This document shows positions 10,787 to 25,728 of a stretch of 43,208 nt of DNA, piece after piece. A program made the translations under genes and the position numbers. Source of the DNA: a virus; IMG/VR virus record IMGVR_UViG_3300045988_065740, positions 1 to 43,208 of that record, one strand, 5' to 3'. The notes under the pieces are model-generated. The model did no database searches, was not told the DNA's origin, and saw only the letters and a list, made by a program, of their open reading frames with translations. Position 1 is the stretch's first letter. The number at the start of each line of letters is the position of its first letter.

Positions 10787-11169
10787 TGTCTAAAAATCTG
10801 CTGAAAGTCGTGTCAGACGGCATGACAGAATTGGGGCTTGAATACGAGTTCGGCGAATACACCAAGGAGCCGATTGTATACCCCTATTTTGTCGGTGAGT
10901 ACACGGAAACAGAGCCTATGACAGAGGACGGCTTGCAGGAAACAACCTTCATGCTGTCAGGCTTCAGCCGTGGCACATGGCTGACACTGGAAAATGCAAA
11001 AGCGAAGATCGAGAACTATTTCAACAAGGTATATGGCAGGACGGTCATGGTTGACGATGGGTCAGCCGTGGCCGTTTTTTATGGCAATTCCTTGATCGTT
11101 CCCACCGGGGACGAAGAACTGAAGAAAATCCAAATCAATCTACAATGCAAAGAATGGAAGGTGAGCTGA
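10786..11169 (+). CDS. Tail completion / tail terminator-like protein
   Basis: 127 aa. TAATG overlap with the previous gene; immediately upstream of the major tail gene. Confidence 0.55.
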   Translation: MSKNLLKVVSDGMTELGLEYEFGEYTKEPIVYPYFVGEYTETEPMTEDGLQETTFMLSGFSRGTWLTLENAKAKIENYFNKVYGRTVMVDDGSAVAVFYGNSLIVPTGDEELKKIQINLQCKEWKVS

Positions 11170-11170
11170 T

Positions 11171-11752
11171 ATGAGCAAAGAGGGCAAGACCGGCGTATCT
11201 GCCAATACCCCCAAGAATATCATGTTCGGTGCTGGTACGATTCACAAGGGTCTGAAGTATGCAGGAAGTTCGTGGAATTTTGATGAAACCATTATCGGTG
11301 CTACTTCGGGCGGCTCCAAGCTGTCTATTGTGCCGGAGATCACCAACATTGAGGTGGACGGCGCACTGGTCAAGGCCAAGGGCCTGACCGTCAAGACCGG
11401 CGAAACGGCAACTATGGAGATCAACTTCCTTGAGCTGACCAAGGACATCATCAAGGCGGCTACCATCGGCGCAGACGGCACGTCTGATGATGCATCCAAC
11501 TATGATCTGATCGAATCCAAGGCGAACATTGCCACGGGCGATTATTGGGAAAATATCGCCTTTGTCGGTAAGACGCTGGAAGGCAAGAACATCATTGCCA
11601 TTTTGGATAATGCGCTTTGCACTTCCGGCTTTGAGCAGGAAGGCAAGAACAAGGAAGGCGCTGTCGGCAAGTACACCTTTGAGTGTCATGCAGAGCTGAC
11701 CAGCGATCTGGATACGTTGCCTTGGCACATCTACTATCCCAAGGCATCCTGA
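11171..11752 (+). CDS. Major tail protein
   Basis: 193 aa, RBS aaggtgag. Lies upstream of the chaperone pair and tape measure, and is followed by a hairpin. Confidence 0.75.
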   Translation: MSKEGKTGVSANTPKNIMFGAGTIHKGLKYAGSSWNFDETIIGATSGGSKLSIVPEITNIEVDGALVKAKGLTVKTGETATMEINFLELTKDIIKAATIGADGTSDDASNYDLIESKANIATGDYWENIAFVGKTLEGKNIIAILDNALCTSGFEQEGKNKEGAVGKYTFECHAELTSDLDTLPWHIYYPKAS

Positions 11753-11757
11753 CGAGT

Positions 11758-11797
11758 AAGGGCAGAATCACAAAATGCAAGTGGTTCTGCCCTTATT
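11758..11797 (+). terminator. Probable partial terminator after the major tail gene
   Basis: aagggcagaa ... ttctgccctt stem with a 17-nt loop, followed by a weak attt tract. Confidence 0.5.
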
Positions 11798-11838
11798 TGC
11801 ATTAAATGCGAAAATAATTGAAAGTGTGGTTATATAAA

Positions 11839-12261
11839 ATGCCTGAAAACATTGATAAAACCTATGAGCTGCGAGACCTCCAGGCTGATGATTTGTTTGT
11901 GCTTGTAAGCATCGTCAGCAAAATCGGCATCAAGGAGTTCAAGGCTTGTTTTGCATCCGATGATGTCAAGGCCGCTGTTAAGAGCATGGCGAAGAAGGAC
12001 GAAAAGGAAGAAGCTGCCGACAACAGCAATGACATTACTTCTGTCGGCATTTCTGTGGCTTTGGACATCGCATCAATCCTGATGGCGAACATCGGCAGGT
12101 GCAAGAGTGACATCTATGCGCTGCTGTCCAATTTGTCCGGCATGAAGGTTGCCGACATTGCAAAGCTCCCGGTAATGACCTTCACAAGCATGGTCGTTGA
12201 CCTTGTGAAGAAAAAGGAGTTTGCAGATTTTTTTCAGGAAGCTGTAAAGTTGTTCAAGTAG
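11839..12261 (+). CDS. Tail assembly chaperone (G-like)
   Basis: Acidic protein of about 140 aa between the major tail protein and the tape measure. Alternative TTG start at 11818. Contains a slippery T7 run near its end. Confidence 0.75.
   Translation: MPENIDKTYELRDLQADDLFVLVSIVSKIGIKEFKACFASDDVKAAVKSMAKKDEKEEAADNSNDITSVGISVALDIASILMANIGRCKSDIYALLSNLSGMKVADIAKLPVMTFTSMVVDLVKKKEFADFFQEAVKLFK
12228..12234 (+). promoter_or_regulatory. Candidate -1 programmed frameshift slippery heptamer T_TTT_TTT
   Basis: In the chaperone frame the sequence reads gaT TTT TTT cag. The -1 frame is open from 12201 through 12575. Confidence 0.65.
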
Positions 12262-12308
12262 GCGATATTCAATTCTTCGATGTCCTGTTTCAGCGGTATG
12301 CAAATCCA

Positions 12309-12575
12309 ATGATTTTATTGGATCAGATGGCAAAGACCGGGCGGCTGTATGAGTTCATCAGCGCGGTTGTCCGCATACGCAACGAGGAACAGGAAGAAAA
12401 GGTCATGTGGGAATACTGGCTGCACAAGGATTTTGAACGCTCCTATCCTGAATTCCTTAACGCAGCAGGTGGAAACAGTACCACGCAGGCCGAGCCGGAA
12501 ACAACCAGCAAGCAGGAGCTGACAGAGATTGTCAAGCAATCTATGAAAATAGCATCATTCGTGCCACAGGAATGA
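12309..12575 (+). CDS. Tail assembly chaperone extension (T part of a G-T fusion); probably not independently initiated
   Basis: The ORF frame is -1 relative to 11839..12261 and is open from 12201. This is the classic arrangement upstream of a tape measure gene. Confidence 0.65.
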   Translation: MILLDQMAKTGRLYEFISAVVRIRNEEQEEKVMWEYWLHKDFERSYPEFLNAAGGNSTTQAEPETTSKQELTEIVKQSMKIASFVPQE

Positions 12576-12620
12576 ATTGCAGCCCCTTATTACCTGCCCT
12601 TACTTTAGGGAGGTAACGAC

Positions 12621-14360
12621 ATGGAACTTTTCAAGCTGTTAGGAACGATAGCCGTTGATAACACACAGGCAAAGCAAGCCATTGAAGAAACTGCGTCAAC
12701 AGCGGATAAGGGAAGCAAGAAAACGGATTCTTCCTTTAAGAAAATCGGTGAATCGGCACTGAAAATCGGAAAGGCTGTTTTGAGCGCTGGCGTGGCGTTA
12801 GGCGGCGCGTGGGTAGCAGCTATTGAGGGTTCCAGAGAATATAGAACGGAAATGGGCAAGCTGGACACAGCTTTTGTCACAAACGGCCATTCATCCGAAG
12901 CGGCAAAGAAAACCTATCAGGATTTACAGGCCGTTTTGGGCGATACGGATGTATCTGTTGAAGCTGCAAACCATTTGGCTGTCATGACCGACAACGAAAA
13001 GGATTTGCAGACCTGGACGGACATCTGCACCGGCGTTTTTGCAACATTCGGCGACAGTTTACCCATTGAAGGCTTGACAGAAGCGGCCAACGAGACAGCA
13101 AAGACCGGGCAGCTCACAGGCGGTCTTGTTGATGCGCTGAACTGGGCTGGCATCGGCGAAGAAGAATTTCAGGCGAAGCTTGACGCTTGCAGCACCGAGC
13201 AGGAGCGTCAGAAGCTTATCATGGACACGCTGAACGGCACTTATAAAAAGGCATCGGATCAGTACAAGGAAACCAATGCCGATGTCATAGCGGCGAATAG
13301 GGCCAACGAGAAGCTGACAAGCGCCTTTGCAGAACTGGGGCGTGTTGGTGAGCCGATTTTGACCGCTATCAAGAATAAGACCGCCGAAATGGTGGCCGCT
13401 GCTGTGCCATTGCTTCAATCCTTTATCACCAAAATAAAGGACATGATCAAATGGTTCAAGCAGAACAAAACCACCGTGCAAGCGTGGGCGGCTGGCATCC
13501 TTGCCGCCACGGTCACAGTATCCGGGTTTGTCCTTGTGCTGAAGTGGGGCAGCATCATGAGCAAGGCAACCACCGCCCTAAAGCTGGTCACAGGCGGCGT
13601 GAAGGCCCTGAATTTGGCCATGAAGGCGAATATCATCGGCCTGGTCGTGTCGCTTATCATCGGCCTTGTAGCAGCCTTTGTGTACCTTTGGAAAAACAAT
13701 GAAGGATTCCGCAACTTTTGGCTGAAGATGTGGGAAAAGATCAAGTCCGCCACTTCCTCCGCTGTCAAGTGGATCAAGAGCAAGTTCAACGATCTGAAGG
13801 ATGTTGTTTCAAGGGTCAGAAACACATTCGGCAGTATCAAGGACGCTATTGCTGACAAGATCGATGGTGCGCGGGACGCTGTAAAAAAAGCCGTTGATAA
13901 GATTAAGGGCTTTTTCCCATTGAGTGTTGGCAAGATTTTTACAAATTTGAAAGTCCCGAAAATCACTGTCAGCGGCGGCAAAGCACCCTTTGGCATTGCT
14001 GGCAAGGGCAAGAAGCCCAGCTTTGATGTCAAATGGAACGCTGAAGGCGGTATTCTTGACCGGCCCACCATCTTTGGCAGCATCGGAAACACGCTGCTGG
14101 GCGGCGGCGAAGCCGGGAAGGAAGCCATTGCGCCCATTGACACGCTTCTTGACTATGTACGCGCTGCTGTCAGCGCAGAAAACGAAGGAATCAGAAAGAC
14201 GCTGATTGAGCAAAACCAAATCCTGATTGACTTTCTTTCCCGGTCTATACCGCACGGCGTGACGCTGGATTCCAGCGCACTGGTCGGAGAGCTGACACCG
14301 GCAATAGATGTACGGCTGTCGGATAGGTTACGAAACGCCCAGAGGGGCAACACACGATAG
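12621..14360 (+). CDS. Tape measure protein, paralogue 1
   Basis: 579 aa, RBS agggagg. Helical Ala/Lys-rich sequence. Central hydrophobic segments (WAAGILAATVTVSGFVLVL, IIGLVVSLIIGLVAAFVYLW). N- and C-termini resemble those of the next ORF. Confidence 0.85.
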   Translation: MELFKLLGTIAVDNTQAKQAIEETASTADKGSKKTDSSFKKIGESALKIGKAVLSAGVALGGAWVAAIEGSREYRTEMGKLDTAFVTNGHSSEAAKKTYQDLQAVLGDTDVSVEAANHLAVMTDNEKDLQTWTDICTGVFATFGDSLPIEGLTEAANETAKTGQLTGGLVDALNWAGIGEEEFQAKLDACSTEQERQKLIMDTLNGTYKKASDQYKETNADVIAANRANEKLTSAFAELGRVGEPILTAIKNKTAEMVAAAVPLLQSFITKIKDMIKWFKQNKTTVQAWAAGILAATVTVSGFVLVLKWGSIMSKATTALKLVTGGVKALNLAMKANIIGLVVSLIIGLVAAFVYLWKNNEGFRNFWLKMWEKIKSATSSAVKWIKSKFNDLKDVVSRVRNTFGSIKDAIADKIDGARDAVKKAVDKIKGFFPLSVGKIFTNLKVPKITVSGGKAPFGIAGKGKKPSFDVKWNAEGGILDRPTIFGSIGNTLLGGGEAGKEAIAPIDTLLDYVRAAVSAENEGIRKTLIEQNQILIDFLSRSIPHGVTLDSSALVGELTPAIDVRLSDRLRNAQRGNTR

Positions 14361-14391
14361 AAGGCCGCTTCCGGTGGCCTTCTTTTATTTT
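14360..14391 (+). terminator. Intrinsic terminator between the two tape measure genes
   Basis: gaaggcc-gcttccggt-ggccttc followed by ttttatttta. Confidence 0.7.
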
Positions 14392-14419
14392 ATCTTCACA
14401 GAAAGTAGGTGAAGGTCAC

Positions 14420-16108
14420 TTGGAACTTTTTAAGCTAAAAGGGATTATTGAGCTTTTTGGCGCAGACAAAGCGAAGAACGAAATAGACGAAACCACAGAT
14501 CACGCCGAACGGAAAGGCTCTAAGCTGTTAAGCACAATGGGCAAAATCGGCGCTGCTGCTATTGCCGCTGGTGCTGCTGCTGTTGTGGCTGTCGGCAAAC
14601 AAGCTATTGCAGCGTATGCGGATTATGAGCAGCTTGTAGGCGGCGCACAGCTGATGTTCGGTGAAGCTTATGACTATATCGCAGACAAAGCCAAGAACGC
14701 ATACAGTACCGTGCAAATGAGCCAGAATGACTATTTGCAACAGGTAAACGGCTTTGCAACCGGACTAAAAACGGCGCTTAATGGAGATGCACAAGCGGCT
14801 GCTGTGCTTGCTGATAAGATCATCAACGCAGAAGCGGACGTTGTGGCGGCAACCGGCAATTCGCAGGAAGCCGTGCAGAACGCCTTCAACGGAATCATGA
14901 AGTCCAACTACACGATGTTGGACAACTTGCAGCTTGGCATCACTCCCACAAAAGAAGGATTTCAGGAGGTTATCGACAAGGTAAACGAGTGGAACGAAGC
15001 CAACGGAAACGCCACAAATTACCAGATTGAAAACCTTGCTGATGCACAGTCTGCCCTTGTAGATTATATTACGATGCAGGGGTTGGCCGGGTATGCATCG
15101 GCGGAAGCGGCAGGCACGATTCAAGGTTCTGTTGCATCCATGAAGGGCGCATGGCAAAACCTGCTTGTTGGTATTGCGGATGATAATGCGAACTTCAAGG
15201 AGCTGACTACCAATTTTGTCGATAGCCTTGTTGCCGTTGGTGAAAATATCATACCGAGAATAAGCGTAGTTATTCAGGGCTTAACGCAGCTTATCACGGA
15301 AACGTCCCAGACAATCATTCCGTTGGCTGTGCAGATTTTGCTTGAAAACCTGCCGAGCATTGTTGCTGCTGGCATGGATTTAATCATTGCGCTTGTAAGC
15401 GGCATCCTTGACAACATCGATATGCTGATTGACTGTGTGCTGGAAATGGTTGATGTCATAGTCGATAAGCTGATTGACAACTTGCCGAAGCTGATCGATG
15501 GTGGAATCAGGCTGATTGCTGCACTTGCTAATGGACTGATTCGTGCCATACCGAATTTGGTATCAAAAATTCCCCAGATTATTTCGTCTATCGTGAAGGG
15601 ACTTATCAGCGGCATCCCTGCAATTTCCGATGTCGGCAAGAACATAGTCGAAGGACTTTGGAACGGCATCAAAAACATGGGTTCGTGGGTTTCTGGAAAA
15701 GTAAAAGACTTTTTCGGTGGAATTGTAGGTGGAGTTAAGGATTTCTTGGGCATCCATTCCCCGTCTAAAGTGTTCGCCGGTATTGGCGGCTTTATGGCTG
15801 AAGGCTTGGGCGAAGGCTTTGACGATCAATTCAAGTCCGTAAAAAAGGACATCGAAAACAGCATGGACTTTGACGCTGGCACAATTACCGCAGATGCGAA
15901 CATCGACAGAAGCTATGCAAGTGGGGCCTACACGGTAACAAACGCAGTCAGCGATTCCGGCAGAATCCTGATGTTGCTTGAACAGTATTTGCCTATGTTG
16001 GCAAATATGAAGGTTGTCGTAAATAGCGGCGCTTTGGTAGGCGAGATTGCGGCCGATCTGGATGTGGAGCTTGGCAAAATTAACGCAAGGAGGGTGCGAA
16101 CCGTATGA
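14420..16108 (+). CDS. Tape measure protein, paralogue 2
   Basis: 562 aa, TTG start after aggtgaagg. N-terminus MELFKLKGIIE...AKNEIDET compares with TMP1 MELFKLLGTIA...AKQAIEET. C-terminus GALVGEIAADLDVELGKINARRVR compares with SALVGELTPAIDVRLSDRLRNAQRG. Contains a GIHSPSKVF motif. Confidence 0.85.
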   Translation: MELFKLKGIIELFGADKAKNEIDETTDHAERKGSKLLSTMGKIGAAAIAAGAAAVVAVGKQAIAAYADYEQLVGGAQLMFGEAYDYIADKAKNAYSTVQMSQNDYLQQVNGFATGLKTALNGDAQAAAVLADKIINAEADVVAATGNSQEAVQNAFNGIMKSNYTMLDNLQLGITPTKEGFQEVIDKVNEWNEANGNATNYQIENLADAQSALVDYITMQGLAGYASAEAAGTIQGSVASMKGAWQNLLVGIADDNANFKELTTNFVDSLVAVGENIIPRISVVIQGLTQLITETSQTIIPLAVQILLENLPSIVAAGMDLIIALVSGILDNIDMLIDCVLEMVDVIVDKLIDNLPKLIDGGIRLIAALANGLIRAIPNLVSKIPQIISSIVKGLISGIPAISDVGKNIVEGLWNGIKNMGSWVSGKVKDFFGGIVGGVKDFLGIHSPSKVFAGIGGFMAEGLGEGFDDQFKSVKKDIENSMDFDAGTITADANIDRSYASGAYTVTNAVSDSGRILMLLEQYLPMLANMKVVVNSGALVGEIAADLDVELGKINARRVRTV

Positions 16109-16770
16109 TTCCCAAGGTTTATATTGACGGCAAGGACACATACACGGAATACGGATTGCTGCTTGCAAGCAAGACTATTTCTTTGCCCAAAGTCCGCACA
16201 AACATGATAGATGTTCCGGGTAGGGACGGCTTGATAGACGCTTCCGATGCACTGACCGGAGAAGCCACCTATAAAAACCGTACTATCAAACTGGAACTTA
16301 TCGGCGTTCCCTCATTAAATGGGAAAGATTGGCCTTCCGCAATCTCCGATTTCTGCAACACCGTACATGGGAAGCGTGTCAAAGTGAAATTTTCCGAGGA
16401 CACCGCTCACTATTACAGTGGGCGGTGTTCTGCCGGTGACGTTAAGCTTAACAAAATAAAGCAGACGATCCCTGTTACTGTTGATTGCGATCCGTGGAAA
16501 TACAAGAACGAGAGAACAACGGTGTCCCGCTCTGACTTGGGGACGGCGTATAAACAGCTTGCGCTACCGAATGAAAGCCGCCCTGTTATCCCAACAATCA
16601 CGGTGGCGCAAGATACCGTATTGCTTTGGGACGGCAACACAATCAACGTCAGCGCAGGGGATCACATTTTACCCGCTATCCGGCTGGCAGCTGGTAACAA
16701 TATCCTGAAAGCCAAAGTCGCAAGCGGAACGGGAAGTATCACTGTGACGTATCAGGAGGCGAGTATGTAA
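16105..16770 (+). CDS. Distal tail protein (Dit), set 1
   Basis: 221 aa. ATGA overlap with TMP2. Siphovirus tail-component pattern ...DVPGRDGLID...DCDPWKY...AGNN. Confidence 0.8.
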   Translation: MIPKVYIDGKDTYTEYGLLLASKTISLPKVRTNMIDVPGRDGLIDASDALTGEATYKNRTIKLELIGVPSLNGKDWPSAISDFCNTVHGKRVKVKFSEDTAHYYSGRCSAGDVKLNKIKQTIPVTVDCDPWKYKNERTTVSRSDLGTAYKQLALPNESRPVIPTITVAQDTVLLWDGNTINVSAGDHILPAIRLAAGNNILKAKVASGTGSITVTYQEASM

Positions 16771-18428
16771 TGTATCAGCTAAAATACAAGGACTACATAC
16801 TGCATGATATGCGCCTTGCGGATGAAAAGATTATCGTCCGTGACCCCTCTGTTAAGCTTGCGGTGAGCAAAGCGGGTGAGATGACTTTCACGCTGGGCGC
16901 TGACCATCCGTATTTAAGCAATCTTCGGCGCATGAGCGGCCTTGTGGAGCTGCTGGACGGCACTTTGCCCATATACAGGGGCAGAATCACCACCGACACA
17001 AAAGACTTCTACGGGGCGCACAAAATCGAAACAGAGGGCATTATGACGGTGCTGAATGACAGCATCATCCCACCGTTCAACTTCCCAGAGGACTTTACGG
17101 AGGACGCTTCCTATAAGGCCGCCGCCGCAAGCGGGAATGTGGTTGATTTCTTCTTTCGTTGGATTTTGGCGCAGCACAACAGCCAAGTGTCCACGGAGCA
17201 GCAAATCAAGCCCGGTGTTTGTACCGTCACCGATAGCAACAACTACATCACCCGCAGCGCATCAGAGTATGCAACGTCAATGTCCACGATATCCGACAAG
17301 CTGATTAAATCGGCTTTGGGCGGGTATCTCCTGATCCGATATGAGGATGACGGGAACTATCTGGATTATTACGCTGCGTTGCCGCTCACAAATACGCAGT
17401 CTGTGGAATTTGCTGAAAATCTCCTTGACCTTTCCAGCGAGACGGACGGAACAAACATTTACACCGCTATTCTGCCAGAGGGCAAGGACGGCTTGACCAT
17501 CGAAGCGCTGTCAGATGGTGATTTGACAGATGACCTTGTTAAATCCGGGCTTACTATTTATAGCAAGTCTGGCGTGGCCACATACGGGCGCATTACCCGG
17601 CACGTCAAATGGGATGATGTGACTGTTGCCGCCAACCTTCAGACCAGGGCAAAGGCGGCGCTTGCTGACAACGGATTGTCAATGCCTGAAACCATCAAAC
17701 TGACGGCGGTTGATTTGGGATGGCAAGAGGATGTGCAGCATTTCCGGGTGGGCCGCATGACTGTTCTTTTTAGCACTACGCACGGATACAGCACATCCTA
17801 TCCGCTGCTGGAATTGTCCCCGGATATTCTTGATCCGGGCAACACCAGAATCACGCTGGGCGCTACCCAGCAAACCTACACGGGGGCGCAGATAGATACC
17901 AAGCGTGAAACGGATGAACGCATCGAAAGCACACGGCAGGAGATTTCCGAGCGGGTGGACGAATCTTCAAGCCAAGTGATACAGGCCACACGTCAGCAGA
18001 TAACCGACCTTCAGCAGAATATCAATTCCATCATTCTTTCCGCTTTGGAACGTTATGTGGAAACAGGTGACTTTGAAAGCTACAAGGAAGAGGTATCCAC
18101 CAAACTGTCCGTGCTTTCGGATCAATTAACCATTGACATCACCCGTATCACCGAACGCATTGATGACGTAAACGGTGATTTGCAGAGTAAATACAGCGAG
18201 ATCACAAAGGCTTTCCGTTTTACGTCTGACGGCCTAATCATTGGCGAAACGGGCAATGAAATCCTGCTGCGGCTGGACAATGATGTGTTGCAGTTTGTCC
18301 GCAATAACACGCCCGAATTGCAGATCACCGCAGAGGGCGTGGAAGCAATGCGTATCAAGGTATCTATCCTCTGCATCGGAAACGTGGTTTGGACGGAGGA
18401 CGAAAACGGCGATGTAATCGCCAGTTGA
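16770..18428 (+). CDS. Tail-associated protein (Tal / prophage tail endopeptidase-like), set 1
   Basis: 552 aa. TAATG overlap with Dit1. Follows Dit and has a coiled C-terminal half. Confidence 0.75.
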   Translation: MYQLKYKDYILHDMRLADEKIIVRDPSVKLAVSKAGEMTFTLGADHPYLSNLRRMSGLVELLDGTLPIYRGRITTDTKDFYGAHKIETEGIMTVLNDSIIPPFNFPEDFTEDASYKAAAASGNVVDFFFRWILAQHNSQVSTEQQIKPGVCTVTDSNNYITRSASEYATSMSTISDKLIKSALGGYLLIRYEDDGNYLDYYAALPLTNTQSVEFAENLLDLSSETDGTNIYTAILPEGKDGLTIEALSDGDLTDDLVKSGLTIYSKSGVATYGRITRHVKWDDVTVAANLQTRAKAALADNGLSMPETIKLTAVDLGWQEDVQHFRVGRMTVLFSTTHGYSTSYPLLELSPDILDPGNTRITLGATQQTYTGAQIDTKRETDERIESTRQEISERVDESSSQVIQATRQQITDLQQNINSIILSALERYVETGDFESYKEEVSTKLSVLSDQLTIDITRITERIDDVNGDLQSKYSEITKAFRFTSDGLIIGETGNEILLRLDNDVLQFVRNNTPELQITAEGVEAMRIKVSILCIGNVVWTEDENGDVIAS

Positions 18429-18442
18429 CAGGAGTGGAGAAC

Positions 18443-20362
18443 ATGGCATCTATCTATAGCAGCGCAAAAAATGGTTGGAAGCTGCGGCTTGATTGGTCTA
18501 TTACCGGACAATCTATCGCAAATAACACCAGCACATTAAGTCTTGATTTGTGGGTGTATGACGGAACCGGATATTCTCAAAACGAGTACAGCAACCAGGC
18601 ATATTATATAATCCAGGGCGAAAAGCATTGGAACCCATATAACTACTCAACTTCCGGCTGGTACAAGCTGGGCAGCAAGACCGTCACAGTCAGTCATAAT
18701 GCAGACGGCACGAAAAGTGTTGCACTTAGCGCGGAATGGGATTGCGGCTTTGACAGTCAATATACACCACGCCATTTGTCCTTGTCGCAGGCGGTCACGC
18801 TGACCACCATACCCAGAGCATCCACGGCTACCACCAGCGGTGACACGCTGGGTAATGTGTTGACCATCACCATCAAGAGGGCCAGCAGCGGATTTACCCA
18901 CAAGCTGTATTACACCTGCGGTAGCATCAAGGATCAACTGATTGCCGAAAATGTAGGCACATCGTACAGTTGGAATGCGCCGCCGGTGTCGCTGGCGCAG
19001 CAAGCGCCAAACGCGGAGACTGTGGCGCTCACGCTTACGGTCAAGACATACAATGGCAGCGCCTATGTTGGGGCATGGTCTTTGCCGGTGAAACTTTCCG
19101 TACCGTCATCTGTGGTTCCGTCCATATCTGTGACAATCGGTGATCCAACAGGTGTAAAAAACACATACGGTGGATATGTCCAGCTTCGCAGTAAAGTCAA
19201 GGTGGATATTACGGCATCCGGGGTGCAAGGAAGTTCGATCAAGTCTTACAGTATCAAGGTGGGCAGCATCTACGCTGCAACATCGGCCAGTGGCACAACG
19301 GATTATCTGCCCGGTTCTGGCGAACTGATTGTTGCTTGCGCCGTTACGGATAGCCGTGGGCGCACTGCCACAAAGACACAAAGCATTACCGTCCTTGCCT
19401 ATAGCAAACCGGCGATTACCGCTATTTCTGCCGCCCGATGCAATTCCGATGGCACAGCAAACCGGGCTGGCTCTTATGGCAAGGTAACGTTTTCCGGCGC
19501 TATCACGTCACTGTCATCCAAAAATACGGCGGCATATGCGGTGCAGTATAGGGAGGTTGGCGCGGAGGACTGGACAACGGCGGGCAGACCGGCAGCGGGA
19601 AACTATGCGCCCGCTGATATCTCCGCCGTGTTTGCCGCAGATAAAAGCAAGCGATACGAAGTACGCGTTGTGGCAACGGACGTATTTGAAAGCATTGGCT
19701 CCACGCTGCGCGACTTGCCAGCGGCATATGCACTGTACCATCTGGCAAAGCACCTGCTATCTGTTGGGCTTGGCCGTCTCTGCGATAAGGCCAACGCAAT
19801 ACAAGTGGGGCTGAACGCTTACTTTGACAGGGATGTGCAAGTCAGCGGCAAAACAACGCTTGATGGAAACCTTTCCGGGAAACATCTCACGGGAACCTGG
19901 CTACAAACAACAGCGGCCACGGATTTAGGCAAAACGCCGCCTAAAGTTGCTGTGCTGGATGATTCCGGGTGGATATATTACAGAACCCCGGTTGACCTTA
20001 TCTATCCGGTTGGTTCGATTTATATGTCAGTCAATGCAACCAATCCATCGGCCCTGTTCGGCGGGACCTGGGAGCAAATTAAAGACCGCTTTCTTCTGTC
20101 CGCTGGCGATTCTCATGCGGCTGGTAGCACGGGCGGCGAGGAAAAGCACACCCTGACCGCTGCGGAACTGCCAGACCATACACATACATTCAAGTACACG
20201 GGCCAGAGCGTCACGACCGGCGTTAATGCGATTAGGCTAAATCAAGCCGCAAGCAATCAATACAATGCCTATTCTGGCGGGCAATCCTCCAACTGCAAGG
20301 GGCAAGCGCATAACAATATGCCACCGTATCTGGCGGTGTACGTCTGGAAACGGACGGAGTAA
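18443..20362 (+). CDS. Tail fibre / receptor-binding protein, set 1 (DUF859-like N-terminal region, tail-collar-like C-terminus)
   Basis: 639 aa. The N-terminal roughly 400 aa align by eye with 22647..24425 (TVSHNADGTKS, FTHKLYY, VTDSRGRTATKT, ISAARCNSDGT). C-terminus: PVGSIYMS...FGGTWEQI...HTLTAAELPDHTH...HNNMPPYLAVYVWKR. Confidence 0.8.
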   Translation: MASIYSSAKNGWKLRLDWSITGQSIANNTSTLSLDLWVYDGTGYSQNEYSNQAYYIIQGEKHWNPYNYSTSGWYKLGSKTVTVSHNADGTKSVALSAEWDCGFDSQYTPRHLSLSQAVTLTTIPRASTATTSGDTLGNVLTITIKRASSGFTHKLYYTCGSIKDQLIAENVGTSYSWNAPPVSLAQQAPNAETVALTLTVKTYNGSAYVGAWSLPVKLSVPSSVVPSISVTIGDPTGVKNTYGGYVQLRSKVKVDITASGVQGSSIKSYSIKVGSIYAATSASGTTDYLPGSGELIVACAVTDSRGRTATKTQSITVLAYSKPAITAISAARCNSDGTANRAGSYGKVTFSGAITSLSSKNTAAYAVQYREVGAEDWTTAGRPAAGNYAPADISAVFAADKSKRYEVRVVATDVFESIGSTLRDLPAAYALYHLAKHLLSVGLGRLCDKANAIQVGLNAYFDRDVQVSGKTTLDGNLSGKHLTGTWLQTTAATDLGKTPPKVAVLDDSGWIYYRTPVDLIYPVGSIYMSVNATNPSALFGGTWEQIKDRFLLSAGDSHAAGSTGGEEKHTLTAAELPDHTHTFKYTGQSVTTGVNAIRLNQAASNQYNAYSGGQSSNCKGQAHNNMPPYLAVYVWKRTE

Positions 20363-20385
20363 CAATTTAAGAAAGGCGGTGCAAC

Positions 20386-21033
20386 ATGAAAGGGGTATCT
20401 TTTGGAACGTATCACAGCTATGCCGATTTTAGCTTGATTCTGACTTCAAAAGAGATTGCAGCCCCGAAAACAAAAACGGTGAAAATTGATGTGGAAGGTG
20501 CGGACGGTTCCATTGACCTTACTGATTTTTTCGGTGAGCCGAAATATGAGGACTGCACACACAAATTTCAGTTTTCAACTATCGTGCCACAAAGCGAATT
20601 TCTTACACTGTTTTCAACAATCAAAAACGCGATACATGGTAAAAAACTGCGGATTGTCCTTGATGATGATCCGCTTTTTTACTATGTCGGAAGATGCTAT
20701 GTTTCCAGTTTCACCAATGAAAAGAACATCGGAAAAGTAAGCGTGGAATGTGATTGTGAGCCGTGGAAGTACAAAGCGGCGAAAACCGTTGTCACACAGG
20801 CCGTCAGCGGTGAAAGCACCATTCCCCTGTCCAATCTCCGCAAGCGCGTTGTGCCGGAAGTGACGATCACGGCAGACAGCGCCTTGCACATTGTCTATGA
20901 GACAAGCAACATTTGGGACTTGGGCAACGGCAGCTACACATTGCCGGAACTGGAACTGAAGGCCGGGAACAACAGCGTTTCCGTCACGGGCGAAGGGACT
21001 ATTTCCTTTGCATATCGGGAAGCGGGGTTGTGA
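20386..21033 (+). CDS. Distal tail protein (Dit), set 2
   Basis: 215 aa. Collinear similarity to Dit1 (IDVEGADGSID, DCEPWKY, AGNNSV). Confidence 0.8.
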   Translation: MKGVSFGTYHSYADFSLILTSKEIAAPKTKTVKIDVEGADGSIDLTDFFGEPKYEDCTHKFQFSTIVPQSEFLTLFSTIKNAIHGKKLRIVLDDDPLFYYVGRCYVSSFTNEKNIGKVSVECDCEPWKYKAAKTVVTQAVSGESTIPLSNLRKRVVPEVTITADSALHIVYETSNIWDLGNGSYTLPELELKAGNNSVSVTGEGTISFAYREAGL

Positions 21034-21034
21034 T

Positions 21035-22645
21035 ATGTACAGGGTGTATTGTGACGGCCTGACGCTGTATAACAGCAGCTTGGAGAGCCTTAAAATATTC
21101 AGTCCTTCCGTGGAATTGGAGCTGAACAAGACCGGCAGTTTCTTATTCACAGTTTATCCCGATCATCCACAGTACAACGCCATTCAAAAGCTGCGGTCGA
21201 TCATCACGGTTTATCAGGATGACTATCTGATTTTTCGTGGGCGTGTCCTTGATGATGAAATCGGCTTCTACAATGAAAAGCGTGTTGTCTGCGAAGGTGA
21301 GCTTGCTTTCCTTCTGGACAGCGTACAACGGCCATACGACTATTCCGGGACGATTTCCGGTTTCTTAAACCTGCTGATTGATAACCACAATGCGCAAGTG
21401 GAGGAAGCAAAGTGGTTCACTGTCGGAAATGTCACGGTTACTGATCCGAATGATTATATCGTCCGGTCAAACATCGACTATGTTGATACATGGACAGAAC
21501 TGCAAAAGAAGATGATCGACCTGCTGGGCGGGTATATCGTCATCCGGCATGAAGGCTATATCAACTATATTGACTACCTGCAAGACTTCACGCTTCTTTC
21601 TCCGCAGAAGATCACATTCGGGAAGAATCTGCTTGACCTGAAGCGGATCAGGAAGGGCGCGGACATTGCAACGGCTCTGATCCCGCTGGGCGCGAAGCTG
21701 AAGGACGATGAAGGTAAAGACACAGACAACCGCCTGACAATCGCTTCTGTCAATGACGGCATTGATTACATCGTTGATGAAGAAGCCGCTGACAGGTACG
21801 GCCTTATTTTCGCAACGCATACATGGGATGACGTGACAGAAGCAGCAAACCTGCTGACAAAGGGCAACGCATATCTGGATGAACTTGTCAACCAGCCTGA
21901 AACCATTGAACTGACGGCGGCAGACTTGGCAACCGTGGACGCTTCCTTCGGAAATTTCCATTTGGGGACATACGTCAAGGTGGAGAGTACGCCGCACGGC
22001 ATAGGACAGAATTTCCTTGTTTCAAAGCTGTCTTTGAAGCTGTTGGAGCCGGGAGCGAACAAACTGACGCTTGGCGGGGTGTTCTTGGGCATTTCCGGGG
22101 CGCTGGCTGGCGTTTCCGGCGCACAGGGTGAAATTATACTGCAAATAGAAAATGCGTCCAAAACGGCTTCTACGGCCATTTACAACGTGGAACAGAATTT
22201 GCTTGCATCCTTGCAGGTATCAGAAGAAAATATCAAATCCGTTGTCGCTGAAAACTACTACCTGAAGGATCAGACGGACGCGCTTGTTTCCTCTGTCAGT
22301 ACGGAGATCGAGCAGACGAAGGAAAGCGTGGAAATACAGTTCAATCAATTCAGCGCTGACATTGATGCTGTGGCAGCGGGTGCAGATGCAGAGTTTGAAG
22401 AAATCCGCAAATACATCCGATTTGTGGACGGCTCAATTCTGCTGGGACAGGTCGGAAATGAGCTGGAATTGAAGATCAGCAATGACCGCATATCTTTCCT
22501 TCAGGACGCTGTTGAAGTGGCTTATTTCTCAGACAATAAGCTGTATGTGACAGACGGCCATTTTCTCCATTCCCTTCAGCTTGGGAACTTTGCTTTTATT
22601 CCAAGGGCAAATAACAATTTGAGCTTCAAGAAGGTGGGTGGTTGA
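21035..22645 (+). CDS. Tail-associated protein (Tal), set 2
   Basis: 536 aa from ATG 21035, which overlaps the Dit2 stop. The N-terminus parallels Tal1 (IFRGRVLDD compares with IYRGRITTD). Confidence 0.75.
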   Translation: MYRVYCDGLTLYNSSLESLKIFSPSVELELNKTGSFLFTVYPDHPQYNAIQKLRSIITVYQDDYLIFRGRVLDDEIGFYNEKRVVCEGELAFLLDSVQRPYDYSGTISGFLNLLIDNHNAQVEEAKWFTVGNVTVTDPNDYIVRSNIDYVDTWTELQKKMIDLLGGYIVIRHEGYINYIDYLQDFTLLSPQKITFGKNLLDLKRIRKGADIATALIPLGAKLKDDEGKDTDNRLTIASVNDGIDYIVDEEAADRYGLIFATHTWDDVTEAANLLTKGNAYLDELVNQPETIELTAADLATVDASFGNFHLGTYVKVESTPHGIGQNFLVSKLSLKLLEPGANKLTLGGVFLGISGALAGVSGAQGEIILQIENASKTASTAIYNVEQNLLASLQVSEENIKSVVAENYYLKDQTDALVSSVSTEIEQTKESVEIQFNQFSADIDAVAAGADAEFEEIRKYIRFVDGSILLGQVGNELELKISNDRISFLQDAVEVAYFSDNKLYVTDGHFLHSLQLGNFAFIPRANNNLSFKKVGG

Positions 22646-22646
22646 T

Positions 22647-24425
22647 ATGGCGAAAACGGGAACGATCACAAAGGCGATCCGGACGGGCTATCAAATGAAA
22701 ATCGTCTGGACGGTCGGCAGTCAGGCCGTGGCAAACAACACATCCAGCGTCACGGTCAAGGTGCAGCTTGTTTCCACCGGCGCAAGCTACACCATCAATA
22801 GCAGCGCAAGCAAAAGCGGCAGTCTGACCATCAACGGGACGAAATACACGTTTTCTTTCTCTGCGGCTCTTTCCGGCAATCAGACGAAAACGCTATTCAC
22901 AAAAACTGTCACCATAGCACATAATGCAGACGGAAGCAAGACCTGTGCTTTTGCGTCTACCATCGGGATCAAGGTCACGCTGGGCGGCACATATTATGGG
23001 GATGTTTCGGCATCCGGCAGCGGCACATTTGACACCATTCCACGGGCAACCACACCCACGCTGTCAGCAAGCAGCGTGAACATGGGATCAAGTATCACAA
23101 TCAATATGCCAAGGGCGGCAGGTGCCTTCACGCATACGCTGACATATAAGTTCGGCAACGCAACCGGCACGATTGGCAGCGGCCTTGGTACAAGCAAGGC
23201 TTGGGAAGTGCCGCTTTCCCTTGCAAGTCAAATTCCATCCGGGACAAGCGGCACCTGCACGATCACCTGTAAGACCTATAACGGCAGTACGCTGATAGGC
23301 ACAAAGACGGTTTCCTTCAAGGCCAGCGTCCCGGCAGCTATTGTGCCTACCATTTCAACCGTTTCCATGACGGAAACGGTTTCCGGCCTTGCCGCTAACT
23401 TTGGCGCTTTTGTGCAGGGCAAATCCAAGGTCAAGATCGGCATTGTGGCGGCTGGGGCTTACGGCTCCACCATCAAGACGTACAAGACCACCGTGGACGG
23501 GAAATCCTATTCCGGCGCAGCTCCTATCACCGGCACACTGTCCAGCGGCACAAAGGCCGTGACAGTCACCGTCACCGACAGCAGAGGACGCACGGCCAAG
23601 ACCACCAAAACGCTGACGGTCATTGCCTACGCCGCGCCGGTCATCAGGGGCATATCTGCTGTGCGTTGCTTGGCAGACGGTACGGAAAACTATGACGGTA
23701 CTCACGGCAAAATCGGCTTCGGCTTCAATATCTCCCCTGTCTCAAATCAAAACACAAGCAAATATGTTCTGGAATACAAGGCAAGGGCATCAAGCACATG
23801 GATAAAGCTGAAGGAAGGCACGGGGTACACCCTATCAACAACGCTGATAACCGGTGCCGATCTGAACGTTGATTCTGCCTATGATGTCAGACTGTCGGTG
23901 ACAGATTATTTCACCACGATCAGAAAAACCGTGGAGATACCAACGGCCTTCACGCTGCTGGACTTCAATTCTTCCGGGCGCGGCCTTGCCTTTGGTAAGG
24001 TGTCAGAGCTTGCGGAAGGCATTGAATTTGGCCTTCCGGTCATCTTCCGCAACGGGTATGAGATAACAGCAAATCCCGGATGGATAACGGCAAAGCTCAC
24101 AAGCGACTTTGAAACATACGCCACAAACGCCGGAAACACATTGCGATATAGGAAAGTCGGCGGCGTTGTCTATTTGAAGGGCGTTGTCACGCCGAAGGCA
24201 ACCTTGACGGGCGGCACGGACAATGTGACCATCACAACACTGCCGGAGGGGTACAGGCCGGAAGTGCAGGGCAATTTCATTTGTCAGGGCAGCGGAACGG
24301 CAATTTGGCTTTGCACCGTTACTGCTGCGGGGCTTGTGCGTTTCGCCCGGTATAGAAACGGCTCTGCATGGGCTGACGCTCCAAACAACACATGGCTACC
24401 AATCGACATTTCATTCATCGTCTAA
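22647..24425 (+). CDS. Tail fibre / receptor-binding protein, set 2 (DUF859-like N-terminal region, distinct C-terminal head)
   Basis: 592 aa from ATG 22647. Shares the N-terminal architecture with 18443..20362 but ends in an unrelated roughly 150-aa domain (…YRKVGGVVYLKGVV…WLPIDISFIV). Confidence 0.8.
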   Translation: MAKTGTITKAIRTGYQMKIVWTVGSQAVANNTSSVTVKVQLVSTGASYTINSSASKSGSLTINGTKYTFSFSAALSGNQTKTLFTKTVTIAHNADGSKTCAFASTIGIKVTLGGTYYGDVSASGSGTFDTIPRATTPTLSASSVNMGSSITINMPRAAGAFTHTLTYKFGNATGTIGSGLGTSKAWEVPLSLASQIPSGTSGTCTITCKTYNGSTLIGTKTVSFKASVPAAIVPTISTVSMTETVSGLAANFGAFVQGKSKVKIGIVAAGAYGSTIKTYKTTVDGKSYSGAAPITGTLSSGTKAVTVTVTDSRGRTAKTTKTLTVIAYAAPVIRGISAVRCLADGTENYDGTHGKIGFGFNISPVSNQNTSKYVLEYKARASSTWIKLKEGTGYTLSTTLITGADLNVDSAYDVRLSVTDYFTTIRKTVEIPTAFTLLDFNSSGRGLAFGKVSELAEGIEFGLPVIFRNGYEITANPGWITAKLTSDFETYATNAGNTLRYRKVGGVVYLKGVVTPKATLTGGTDNVTITTLPEGYRPEVQGNFICQGSGTAIWLCTVTAAGLVRFARYRNGSAWADAPNNTWLPIDISFIV

Positions 24426-24430
24426 CGCAA

Positions 24431-24462
24431 AGGGGAAGGCCGAAGCCTTCCCCTTCTTTTTT
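24431..24462. terminator. Bidirectional terminator between convergent genes
   Basis: aggggaaggc-cgaa-gccttcccct followed by a T-run on the + strand. It lies between the stop at 24425 (+) and the stop at 24463 (-). Confidence 0.8.
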
Positions 24463-25131
24463 TTATTCCTTAATTTTGAGTATGTAACTTCTACCCGATT
24501 TTGTTCGTTCTATCTTGCCCGTTCTGGCCGATTCTCGCAGGAAAGCGGAAACTTCATCTTTTATCAACGGATCAAATGTTTTCAGGAACTCGCTTTGAAT
24601 AATACCGTTACATTCACGTAATTTAGCCATTACGTCATATTCAAGAGTTGAAAGTAAATTTTCATGCTTAATAAGAGATGGAGCATCAGCTTTCAATCTT
24701 CTATAGTCCTTTACTTCTTCATTGTAACTCACTGATTCTAAAAAGTTTTCGCAAAACCACTTGTAATGGCACTCACCTGCTTCTTTGCATTCCTCGCCAA
24801 CACTGGCTATTGTGGCAAAATAATCTCTGTATGCATCAAGTTTGTCTTGTGTCAGGACAGCATTTCTCACCGCTTTCCACTTATCAGCTATTTTCCTGCC
24901 CTTCTCGCCTGTAAAATCTTGATAATAGACAAGCCAACCAAATGGGAGTTCACCATCTGGTGTTAAGTGCCGCAAATCTTCTCCCAAAGTATTGTGGAAG
25001 TTATCTTTTGGCTTTGAAATAAGGCCGTTATCTGAAAGAATTTTTGCGATTGCGCCAAAATCTTCTGCTTGTTTCAGTTCATTCAAAACAGTTTCTTTAC
25101 GCTTCCTCTTGAAAACACCAAACAATCCCAT
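24463..25131 (-). CDS. Hypothetical moron protein with a possible winged-helix C-terminus
   Basis: 222-aa ORF in an AT-rich minus-strand block between the fibre gene and the integrase. No family recognised. Confidence 0.65.
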   Translation of the reverse strand: MGLFGVFKRKRKETVLNELKQAEDFGAIAKILSDNGLISKPKDNFHNTLGEDLRHLTPDGELPFGWLVYYQDFTGEKGRKIADKWKAVRNAVLTQDKLDAYRDYFATIASVGEECKEAGECHYKWFCENFLESVSYNEEVKDYRRLKADAPSLIKHENLLSTLEYDVMAKLRECNGIIQSEFLKTFDPLIKDEVSAFLRESARTGKIERTKSGRSYILKIKE

Positions 25132-25143
25132 AACAGCACCACC

Positions 25144-25335
25144 TTAAACACGCTTCATTCTTTTCCCGTGATACTTCGGAATTACATCACGGTAAAAAAC
25201 ATCAACCGCAACCCGCGCTTCCTCAAAGTTTGGGAAAAGGTATGCGTCATCGCCAAGGATGATTTTCCAGCCCTTATTTTCCACAAGCTCAATTTTGAAT
25301 CCCTTGTAGGTGGTTTCCTTGACTTCAACAATCAT
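25144..25335 (-). CDS. Small hypothetical protein, co-oriented and near-contiguous with 24463..25131
   Basis: 63-aa ORF, with a 12-nt gap to the downstream gene. Confidence 0.55.
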   Translation of the reverse strand: MIVEVKETTYKGFKIELVENKGWKIILGDDAYLFPNFEEARVAVDVFYRDVIPKYHGKRMKRV

Positions 25336-25414
25336 ACGGTGTTTCCCCCTTTATAGTATTGTCACTTGAAATCTGGCAATATTCTACAACGCGCCAGCGC
25401 AGAAAACAAGCCCC

Positions 25415-25448
25415 CAAAATAAAAAGGGAAAGGCAAATTGCCCTTCCC
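25415..25448 (-). terminator. Intrinsic terminator (minus strand)
   Basis: On the minus strand: ggggaagggca-att-tgcctttccc followed by tttttatttt. Confidence 0.75.
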
Positions 25449-25454
25449 CTGATT

Positions 25455-25613
25455 TTAGTTATTCAGCTTTTCATTCATCTGTTCTTGTGTTATAATCCCC
25501 AAACAGTACAGCTCAAGCAGCGATTCAACATACACCGCTTTTCTTTCCTTGTATTCCTCCGCAGTTATTATATTGGCAACCAACAGCGTTTCAAGCAATC
25601 CTAATGTATTCAT
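25455..25613 (-). CDS. Small protein with two SHOCT-like repeats
   Basis: MNTLGLLETLLVANIITAEEYKERK...LGIITQEQMNEKL. ATG 25613 is preceded by aaggaag. The longer ORF option starts at 25673. Confidence 0.5.
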   Translation of the reverse strand: MNTLGLLETLLVANIITAEEYKERKAVYVESLLELYCLGIITQEQMNEKLNN

Positions 25614-25670
25614 TCCGTTCTTCCTTTCCGTTGATATATAAGGCTTTTTCCGGTTTGGTTTAACTATATC

Positions 25671-25708
25671 CATCAGTCATGCGCGGTTGAATCCGCACAC
25701 AACTGATG
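25671..25708. repeat. Imperfect 16-bp inverted repeat around ttgaat; candidate attP core
   Basis: catcagtcatgcgcgg-ttgaat-ccgcacacaactgatg, 21 nt from the recombinase stop codon. Confidence 0.35.
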
Positions 25709-25728
25709 GAAATGGTGGGTGCAAAAAA

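Follow-up and report, generated by a model that had tools for sequence, protein, structure and literature searches.

Two nested sets of tail-tip genes in a family of siphoviruses and the possible assembly of two kinds of tail from one genome

Introduction

The tail of a siphovirus is initiated by a complex of the tape measure protein (TMP), the distal tail protein (Dit) and the hub protein Tal, which is formed with the G/GT chaperone. Canonical examples are gp18/gp19.1/gp21 of SPP1, the TMP, Dit and Tal of TP901-1, and gpH/gpM/gpL/gpJ of lambda. Tail assembly is understood as using one initiator complex per genome and, to our knowledge, described phages carry one TMP-Dit-Tal set. In this work the IMG/VR virus record IMGVR_UViG_3300045988_065740 was analysed over its full length of 43,208 nucleotides (the window). 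Its tail region contains two TMP, two Dit and two Tal genes as well as two genes for fibre-like DUF859 proteins (Fib), and these lie in the order TMP1, TMP2, Dit1, Tal1, Fib1, Dit2, Tal2, Fib2.

Organization of the tail region

The window carries the gene set of a temperate siphovirus, including the portal, MuF-like, scaffold, major head and major tail proteins. All eight open reading frames (ORFs) of 12621-24425 are present, intact and on the plus strand (Table 1), where TMP1, Dit2, Tal2 and Fib2 are referred to as the backbone or outer set and TMP2, Dit1, Tal1 and Fib1 as the inner set. When the six-frame translation of the window was searched with hidden Markov models (HMMs) of the protein families, one major tail protein and two members each of the TMP, Dit, Tal and Fib families were found. 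An earlier note, made from the sequence of the window, had described two complete, intact and diverged tip sets with one tube gene and one chaperone, and both the ORFs and the HMM search agree with this description. Purifying selection was observed on all eight genes, with ratios of non-synonymous to synonymous substitution (dN/dS) of 0.05-0.36 against several relatives. The values were 0.05-0.13 for TMP1, 0.14-0.36 for TMP2, ~0.09-0.13 for Dit1, 0.11-0.13 for Dit2 and 0.06-0.12 for Tal2.

Table 1. Features of the tail region, with coordinates in the window
Feature	Position	Strand	Basis or remark
Major tail (tube) protein	11171..11752	+	phrog_885 major tail protein, E 5e-59
G/T tail assembly chaperone pair, the single one of the window	11818..12575	+	Between tube gene and TMP; phrog_1021 and phrog_1294 matches
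TMP1, backbone tape measure, 579 aa	12621..14360	+	phrog_58, E 4.5e-35, and 13 further TMP PHROGs
Terminator-like hairpin and T-run, left flank of the inner cassette	14359..14392	+	Consensus scan
TMP2, inner-cassette tape measure, 562 aa, TTG start	14420..16108	+	phrog_58, E 2e-48; phrog_6900, phrog_5493 and others
Dit1, inner-cassette distal tail protein	16105..16770	+	phrog_33, E 3e-16
Tal1, inner-cassette hub protein	16770..18428	+	Prophage_tail PF06605, 43.3 bits (cut-off 31.3); phrog_3558, E 3.5e-83
Fib1, inner DUF859 protein	18443..20362 (likely ATG; ORF open from TTG 18389)	+	
Right boundary of the exchangeable cassette, a 23-nt spacer before Dit2	20363..20385	+	DNA homology to relatives resumes
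Dit2, backbone distal tail protein, presumed partner of TMP1	20386..21033	+	phrog_33, E 7e-16
Tal2, backbone hub protein	21035..22645 (likely ATG; ORF open from TTG 21008)	+	Prophage_tail PF06605, 58.4 bits (cut-off 31.3); phrog_3558, E 1.5e-128
Fib2, backbone DUF859 protein	22647..24425 (likely start; ORF open from GTG 22638)	+	
Strong terminator-like hairpin closing the tail block	24430..24465	+	11-bp stem, 7 GC pairs, then CTTTTTTTTA

Pairwise BLASTP gave 32% identity between Dit1 and Dit2 (E 3e-37), 30% between Tal1 and Tal2 (E 1e-62) and 33-34% between Fib1 and Fib2 over the N-terminal ~480 aa that make up DUF859 (E 1e-70). The earlier statement that the pairs are clearly homologous is borne out for Dit, Tal and Fib but not for the tape measures, as the comparison of TMP1 with TMP2 by BLASTP returned nothing significant (best E 0.098). 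The TMP1 and TMP2 family profiles align end to end in hhalign (probability 100%, E 6.8e-48, 481 columns, 21% identity), a score that may be too high because these proteins are rich in coiled coils and hydrophobic residues. Judged from the sequences, TMP1 and TMP2 are homologous, and this is seen through their termini and the profile comparison only. No Pfam TMP domain was found above the cut-off in either protein. By position, TMP1 follows the G/T genes yet precedes TMP2, and TMP2 precedes Dit1 yet follows TMP1. The homologues of TMP1 and TMP2 in phages with a single set lie directly after the chaperone and directly before Dit, so that both halves of the positional rule for a tape measure are seen together there.

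Dit1 and Dit2 are both members of the Dit family, Dit1 by its PHROG match and a structural model and Dit2 by its PHROG match and its 32% identity to Dit1. The best PDB match of the AlphaFold model of Dit1 (pLDDT 70.6) is SPP1 Dit (2X8K, E 1.4e-7, probability 1.0), with TM-scores of only ~0.37 and low confidence at residues 28-59. The next matches are the baseplates of NF5, Douge and TP901-1 and also the tip of a monocin. Searches of PDB chains with the sequences of Tal2, Fib2 and Dit2 gave no match. No lytic domain was detected in Tal1 or Tal2, and the name Tal does not imply lysin activity here.

The DUF859 domain (PF05895, cut-off 28.8) is found in Fib1 with 201.6 bits (E 2.9e-59) and in Fib2 with 203.3 bits (E 9e-60), and both proteins match phrog_372 (E 1e-97 and E 8e-106, respectively). 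Fib1 ends in a Gp10_C domain (PF21939, E 1.5e-24), residues 491-593 of Fib2 match phrog_7127 ('receptor binding tail protein'), and relatives of Fib2 make up more than 5700 protein clusters in metagenomes. Their position, their variable C-terminal domains and the PHROG labels make Fib1 and Fib2 candidate receptor-binding proteins (RBPs).

The single chaperone pair of the window consists of G (11818-12261) and T (12309-12575). The phrog_1021 match of the ORF in the chaperone position is to a PHROG of unknown function that has no family-level chaperone annotation. The frame of T is -1 relative to that of G and is open across the 3' end of G, where an A/T-rich slippery stretch adjoins. Frameshifting from G to GT is predicted from the frames of these ORFs.

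The dual-set family

IMG/VR was scanned with TMP1, which gave 68 loci, and with Tal2, which gave 78 loci; the loci come from at least 21 source datasets and are identified by labels such as L001 or L053. Their ORFs were classed with iteratively built family HMMs, and ~48 non-redundant loci were found to span the whole region. Except for L053, these complete loci all have the order TMP (~580 aa), second TMP, Dit, Tal, RBP(s), Dit (~215 aa), Tal (~535 aa) and DUF859 protein, and in none of them does TMP1 directly precede Dit2. In all relatives the TMP1 orthologues are ~580 aa long (46-95% identity) and the Dit2 orthologues ~215 aa, and the dual architecture persists down to ~46-54% TMP1 identity across the source datasets. 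The dual layout is also found in GenBank record MT835521 (human faeces, Mexico) and in three contigs of metagenome-assembled genomes (MAGs). Positions 10386-31033 of the window, which cover the whole tail region, are matched at 100% identity by a Logan contig from run ERR1110362 (20.6 kb fetched).

The second TMP was apparently absent from four loci. Three of these were parsing effects caused by overlapping or split ORFs, and the fourth, L053, seemed to have one TMP with two Dit/Tal sets and was set aside, as it comes from a contig that looks chimeric, with two phages joined. L053, L145 and L154 all lie on IMG/VR contig 3300045988_072179, which is 89 kb long or ~2x the usual genome length. Here a single-set phage (MTP208-TMP663-Dit256-Tal672-RBP) seems to have been fused with a dual-set phage where the RBP module ends. 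This contig is probably an assembly chimera that formed through a shared RBP gene. If so, RBPs would be common to inner cassettes and to single-set phages that occur alongside them. The inner Dit of L092, L095 and L143 looked truncated through an artefact of ORF chaining, and these genes are intact. In L116 (11762-13400) and L129 (11801-14453) the second TMP is split into two ORFs, and the inner Dit of L129 is split as well.

The nested cassette and its exchange

The numbering in the earlier note pairs TMP1 with Dit1 and TMP2 with Dit2, as in a duplicate set. The arrangement is a nested one instead. On comparative evidence, TMP2-Dit1-Tal1-Fib1 (14420-20362) is a contiguous, foreign, horizontally exchanged cassette that lies between TMP1 and its counterparts Dit2-Tal2-Fib2.

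A search for relatives with only one set, as the earlier note had proposed, found each type of set on its own. The inner type occurs alone in MT836707 (L001), which has 86% DNA identity to positions 15115-19839 of the window and carries a single set only. Its genes encode a 558-aa TMP, Dit, Tal and a DUF859 protein, the last three with identities of 83% to Dit1, 92% to Tal1 and 74% to Fib1. In its head and tube genes L001 is unrelated to the window. Two further ORFs follow the DUF859 gene of L001 in the position of the holin and amidase genes of L205 and L208. L205 and L208-L210 belong to an abundant contig family with a single set in the order TMP-Dit221-Tal-DUF859/Gp10_C-holin-amidase, and the inner-type TMP is the sole tape measure of these single-set phages at 558-690 aa. 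The outer type (Dit2-Tal2-DUF859) occurs alone after a single TMP of ~1000-1325 aa in L074 and in the Ca. Heliusvirales gut phages PV036446 and PV036429; Heliusvirales phages that appeared to have two places for Tal2 proved to be single-set. The single-set relatives (PV036446, PV036429, L074 and L001/L205) thus have Dit-Tal-DUF859 modules and TMP C-terminal motifs homologous to those of the window, but they differ in having one TMP (558-1325 aa) followed directly by one Dit-Tal-fibre set. Because the inner and outer types each occur alone as the tip of single-set phages, each set appears to be self-sufficient.

TMP1, Dit2, Tal2 and Fib2 are conserved throughout the dual family, whereas the inner module is of at least three non-orthologous types. 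The first has a Dit, a Prophage_tail-type Tal and a DUF859 protein, the second an SPP1_Dit-type Dit, a Sipho_Gp37-type Tal and other RBPs, and the third a Dit with a phrog_538-type Tal, which in L080 has a collagen-like C-terminal part. Near-identical backbones (TMP1 93-95%, Tal2 95-97%) are combined with different inner types in L080, L081 and L089. In the DNA comparison, the right breakpoint of homology falls in the spacer before Dit2 in eight of ten relatives, regardless of the inner type. The exceptions are earlier in L081 (20309) and L108 (20306) or later in L112 (20433), and lie no more than ~80 nt from the start of Dit2. In six of the ten relatives the left breakpoint lies at 14437-14645, within the first 75 TMP2 codons, and in the other four, which share more of the cassette, it is found deeper inside.

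In some relatives the cassette contains additional genes. In L076 (2319-3647), L197 (5275-6600) and L198 (10001-11330) its first gene encodes an additional major tail protein (phrog_885, E 7e-35). In L076/L198 and L197, which come from two datasets, two small ORFs in the chaperone position precede the TMP-Dit-Tal genes of the cassette. The N-terminus of the cassette TMP is less backbone-like in these three loci, and from its gene content the inner cassette is here a nearly complete second tail module. The claim of a single tube gene and a single chaperone stands for the window but does not fully extend to these relatives. Tandem major tail protein genes (193 and 209 aa) were also seen in L203 (8680-9910), close to the end of the contig. 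In L213/L214 (5854-7738) and L128 (18204-20088), the end of the cassette carries genes for a holin (Phage_holin_5_2), a PG_binding_1 protein and an Amidase_3 protein immediately upstream of the outer Dit, as if the late operon of another phage had had its 3' end captured.

One relative lacks TMP1. In L206 (GCA_963640005.1, CAVHXX010000031.1, 7850-8030), the backbone has 83% DNA identity and TMP1 is precisely deleted between two short GGGAGGTAAC / GAGGGGCAAC microhomologies, of which one lies at the ribosome-binding site and the other in the last codons of TMP1. T, the hairpin, a TMP2-type gene, Dit1 and Tal1 are kept, and the contig ends in Tal1. No other copy of the deletion junction was found in IMG/VR and the JGI metagenomes.

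Tape measure termini and pairing of the sets

The N-terminal motif M-E-L-F-K-L-x-G-x-I-A is common to TMP1 and TMP2 throughout the family, and the N-terminus of TMP2 (MELFKLKGIIE) resembles that of TMP1. The N- and C-terminal motifs quoted in the earlier note are therefore family-wide features. Residues 66-562 of TMP2 are 71% identical to the sole TMP of L001, and the homology begins only at residue 66. The single-set cassette TMP of the L001 type starts with MNLLDLFVKISVQD, unlike TMP2. Since the single-set counterpart has this different start and similarity is seen only from residue 66, TMP2 has been given a backbone-type N-terminus. By this comparison it is a chimera of a ~65-aa backbone-type N-terminus with a cassette-type body and a class A C-terminus. 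A backbone-type N-terminus is as expected if TMP2 uses the chaperone, tube and terminator proteins of the backbone.

By the motifs in their last ~50 residues the TMPs can be sorted into classes, and these follow the class of Dit and Tal. Class A ('LDSGALVGxL') occurs with Dit-cluster 1 and Tal-cluster 0, which are Dit1/Dit2-type Dit and Prophage_tail Tal proteins. Class B ('..ARWAI' or 'WRWRG') occurs with Sipho_Gp37 Tal proteins and class C ('NxREFGRxV') with phrog_538 Tal proteins. The class match between a TMP and the adjacent Dit/Tal genes could reflect mere linkage. TMP1 of the window has the class A C-terminus LDSSALVGELTPAID, the same class as the distal Dit2/Tal2, and TMP1 is of class A in 58 of 60 non-redundant loci, including 30 in which the adjacent inner set is of class B or C. 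Because TMP1 keeps class A even beside class B or C inner sets, it is assigned to the distal Dit2/Tal2, which lie 6 kb away.

The earlier note had observed that the two TMPs are nearly the same length. This is correct for the window (579 and 562 aa) but is a coincidence of this genome, as TMP1 is ~580 aa throughout the family and TMP2 ranges from 466 to 928 aa; no enzyme domains were found in the long variants of TMP2 (up to 928 aa). Given this range against the constant length of TMP1, many relatives are predicted to make tails of two lengths.

The hairpin after TMP1

The hairpin directly after the stop codon of TMP1 has an 11-bp stem with 6 GC pairs that is followed by TTTATTTTAT. A hairpin with a T-run is found at the same position in most relatives, with differing stem sequences, and it is missing in L076. 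It is predicted to function as a terminator and may act as an attenuator of all downstream transcription. In some relatives, 0.4-1.1 kb separate TMP1 from the second TMP. This spacer holds a minus-strand gene in L149 (4991-5500) and L139 (2583-3095), which encodes a protein of ~170 aa with a signal-peptide or lipoprotein-like leader that is conserved between the two loci; it is likely a moron. In spacer-bearing relatives the hairpin is flanked by an A-run and a T-run and could act in both directions.

Proposed assembly of two tail types

The earlier note had raised two uses for the duplicate genes, namely two tip types that share a common tube and a composite baseplate that combines both. The comparative evidence favours the first. 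We consider it fairly probable that two independent initiator complexes build two types of tail on shared heads. Gene content, the nested order, conservation, the exchange of modules, purifying selection and the matching of motifs were computed, and from these we infer the protein pairings, the co-expression and the two particle types of the scheme that follows.

Both sets would be co-transcribed from the late operon. The C-terminus of each TMP would then nucleate its own initiator, TMP1 with Dit2/Tal2 and TMP2 with Dit1/Tal1, while both TMPs would share the G/GT chaperone, the tube protein and the terminator protein by means of a backbone-type N-terminus. Two tails would be polymerised from one pool of tube protein and attached to the same heads. 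The result would be a mixed burst of two virion types that carry either Fib2 or Fib1, with different RBPs and probably different hosts. The conserved outer set would provide a stable specificity and the inner cassette a swappable second one.

Extended to the whole clade, the proposal is that these phages are constitutively dimorphic, such that each burst contains two virions with different TMP-Dit-Tal nuclei and RBPs on the same head. We regard the odds of this as about even. The tails of the relatives would moreover be of two lengths, sometimes with different tube proteins, and the inner cassette would be traded between unrelated phages, with compatibility achieved by grafting the ~65-residue TMP N-terminus of the backbone onto the incoming tape measure. 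Such dimorphism would amount to built-in bet-hedging or host-range expansion without DNA switching.

Several observations weigh against two separate tails. The inner cassette has been lost in none of the relatives, which also fits a need for both sets in one structure. The pairings of TMP1 with Dit2/Tal2 and of TMP2 with Dit1/Tal1 are drawn from motif classes and synteny, and both sets of the window are of class A, so that cross-assembly between them would be possible. The terminator-like hairpin that parts TMP1 from its presumed partners Dit2/Tal2 is unaccounted for. The split genes of L116 and L129 could be sequencing errors or the beginning of cassette decay, and the compositional caution on the TMP profile score also belongs here.

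Alternative explanations

The alternative of a composite tip, in which both sets are built into one tip or baseplate (for instance as stacked Dit rings with a second hub bearing fibres) and every virion displays both fibres, is in our judgement unlikely. In SPP1, TP901-1 and lambda, the lumen of the tube is filled by one TMP oligomer and plugged by one Tal trimer, which counts against it. The two sets always co-occur and the inner cassette is never lost among relatives, as a composite structure would lead one to expect, and they form one transcription unit with no strong internal terminator between them. Dual RBPs in one baseplate are moreover documented for the lactococcal phage Phi4.2 (PMC6315561). 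However, each type of set is the sole tip in single-set phages, and the combination of near-identical outer sets with inner sets that are non-orthologous speaks against a specific interface between the two. Each set also has its own TMP with a matched C-terminus, and some cassettes bring a tube gene of their own.

The inner set might instead serve other particles, such as headless tail-like particles (an F-type tailocin), conditional tails or another packaged element. Matches of the Dit1 model include the tip of a monocin, a phage-tail-like bacteriocin, the terminator-like element before the cassette could allow differential expression, and some cassettes end in their own holin and endolysin genes. 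Nevertheless, the cassette lies inside the virion late operon, where no promoter of its own stands out from chance matches, in single-set phages it forms the ordinary infective tip, and TMP2 has gained a backbone-type N-terminus as would be expected for use with the phage's own chaperone and tube. We view a role in other particles as quite improbable.

That one set is an evolutionary passenger, a non-functional leftover of tail-module recombination that has not been purged, is largely refuted, and very little weight is given to it. Mosaic recombination is frequent in the tail region, TMP1 is deleted in L206, and TMP2 or Dit is split in two contigs (L116 and L129). Yet the eight ORFs are intact with dN/dS of 0.05-0.36, the architecture is kept over the range of TMP1 identities and datasets given above, and instead of eroding, the cassette has repeatedly given way to other complete TMP-Dit-Tal-RBP sets.

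Even less credit is due to a split tape measure, in which TMP1 and TMP2 would be the halves of one ruler, in series or as a hetero-oligomer, within a single tail. It would account for the ~1000-1325 aa of the outer-type single-set TMP, roughly the sum of TMP1 and TMP2, and for the matches of TMP1 and TMP2 to different parts of the phrog_58 profile (positions 257-672 and 733-1034, respectively). However, the TMP motifs of both termini are complete in each of the two proteins, which can be aligned over their full length. Single-set phages have a TMP2-type protein of 558-690 aa as their only tape measure, the C-terminus of TMP2 follows the class of the inner Dit/Tal, and L206 is without TMP1.

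Finally, the joining of two strain variants by the assembler has a negligible chance and is excluded as the origin of the two sets, for although the window comes from a metagenome-type assembly and the related 89-kb IMG/VR contig does look chimeric, a simple strain merge could not produce the nested order, no DNA repeat >35 nt is common to both sets, and the layout recurs in dozens of independent contigs (~48 complete relatives), MT835521, MAGs, a prophage integrated in a 188-kb contig and the identical Logan contig.

Relation to known systems

Each set of the window resembles the canonical initiator in having TMP, Dit, Tal and an RBP in the canonical order, downstream of the tube and G/T genes. 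It differs in that one operon contains two such sets, one nested within the other, with the tube, chaperone and head in common. Neither tandem tape measures nor duplicate Dit/Tal sets were found in the literature that was searched, for which journal coverage was partial, and matches on two tape measures concerned two chaperone products and not two TMPs. The remark in the earlier note that no siphovirus with a full duplicate initiator set has been described agrees with this search. What is unusual here is the presence of two canonical initiator sets, nested and family-wide, which is not foreseen by current models of assembly.

In the G segment of Mu (Gin) and the C segment of P1 (Cin), DNA inversion switches between fibre sets so that each cell uses one of them, and the change is confined to the fibre with its chaperone. 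As may be the case for the window phage, one genome gives rise to two virion types with different host range. In contrast, the window has no inverted repeats or invertase near the tail genes, and both full sets share one orientation within a single operon. The interval 11000-26000 contains no inverted or direct repeats >39 nt. Neither an invertible segment, an invertase beside the tail genes nor repeats like those of a diversity-generating retroelement were found at the tail region of the window, which lacks the features of tropism switching by either route.

The multi-tailspike or branched-RBP phages K1-5, SP6, CBA120 and phi92 carry all of their spikes on one baseplate by means of adaptor proteins, and the tape measure and hub are not duplicated. 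Such phages have several receptor specificities per genome, as is suggested for the window phage, but the window differs in duplicating the tape measure and the hub.

In the lactococcal 936-group phages Phi4.2, Phi4R15L and Phi4R16L, an extra RBP gene accompanies the classical one, and the products of both genes are virion components that bind host cells. Dual RBPs occur in only 3 of 115 phages of the group and both RBPs are located in one atypical baseplate (PMC6315561). The likeness is a siphovirus genome with an additional receptor-binding gene; those phages add an RBP gene alone and have no second TMP, Dit or Tal, whereas the second set described here is family-wide.

If the second initiator set is used, two tip complexes would supply a single head-and-tube production line. 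The tape measure would then be modular, with an N-terminal part matched to the chaperone and tube and a C-terminal part matched to the hub, and the host range of gut phages would be widened by the trading of TMP-to-fibre cassettes and not of fibre tips alone. The natural chimeras make the rules of TMP-chaperone and TMP-hub recognition testable, and they suggest a design principle for engineered phages with two host specificities. For annotation, two TMPs with two Dit/Tal pairs should be read as two sets and not as an assembly error, which matters for virome annotation and host prediction.

Neighbouring genes and host

The endolysin gene of the window (Amidase_3 and SPOR, 6493-7221) lies inside the head block between the MuF-like and scaffold genes and is directly followed by a strong terminator-like hairpin (7220-7251). 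No lysis genes lie downstream of Fib2 in the window. A 222-aa minus-strand ORF (24463-25131) without a Pfam or PHROG match separates the tail block from a large serine integrase (25729-27381, minus strand), which is the sole recombinase close to the tail genes.

The window phage is a candidate temperate siphovirus of gut Clostridia. The contig scan with TMP1 returned three MAG contigs alone, with unreliable taxonomic labels, and hence no host for the window phage. A distant relative, L213 (12640-22040), is integrated in the 188-kb contig beside argH, argG, murB and rapZ. The neighbouring ArgG is 87-92% identical to proteins of Clostridiales/Bacillota MAGs, an Anaerovoracaceae MAG and Ihubacter massiliensis, which points to an Anaerovoracaceae/Ihubacter-like Clostridia host for that relative.

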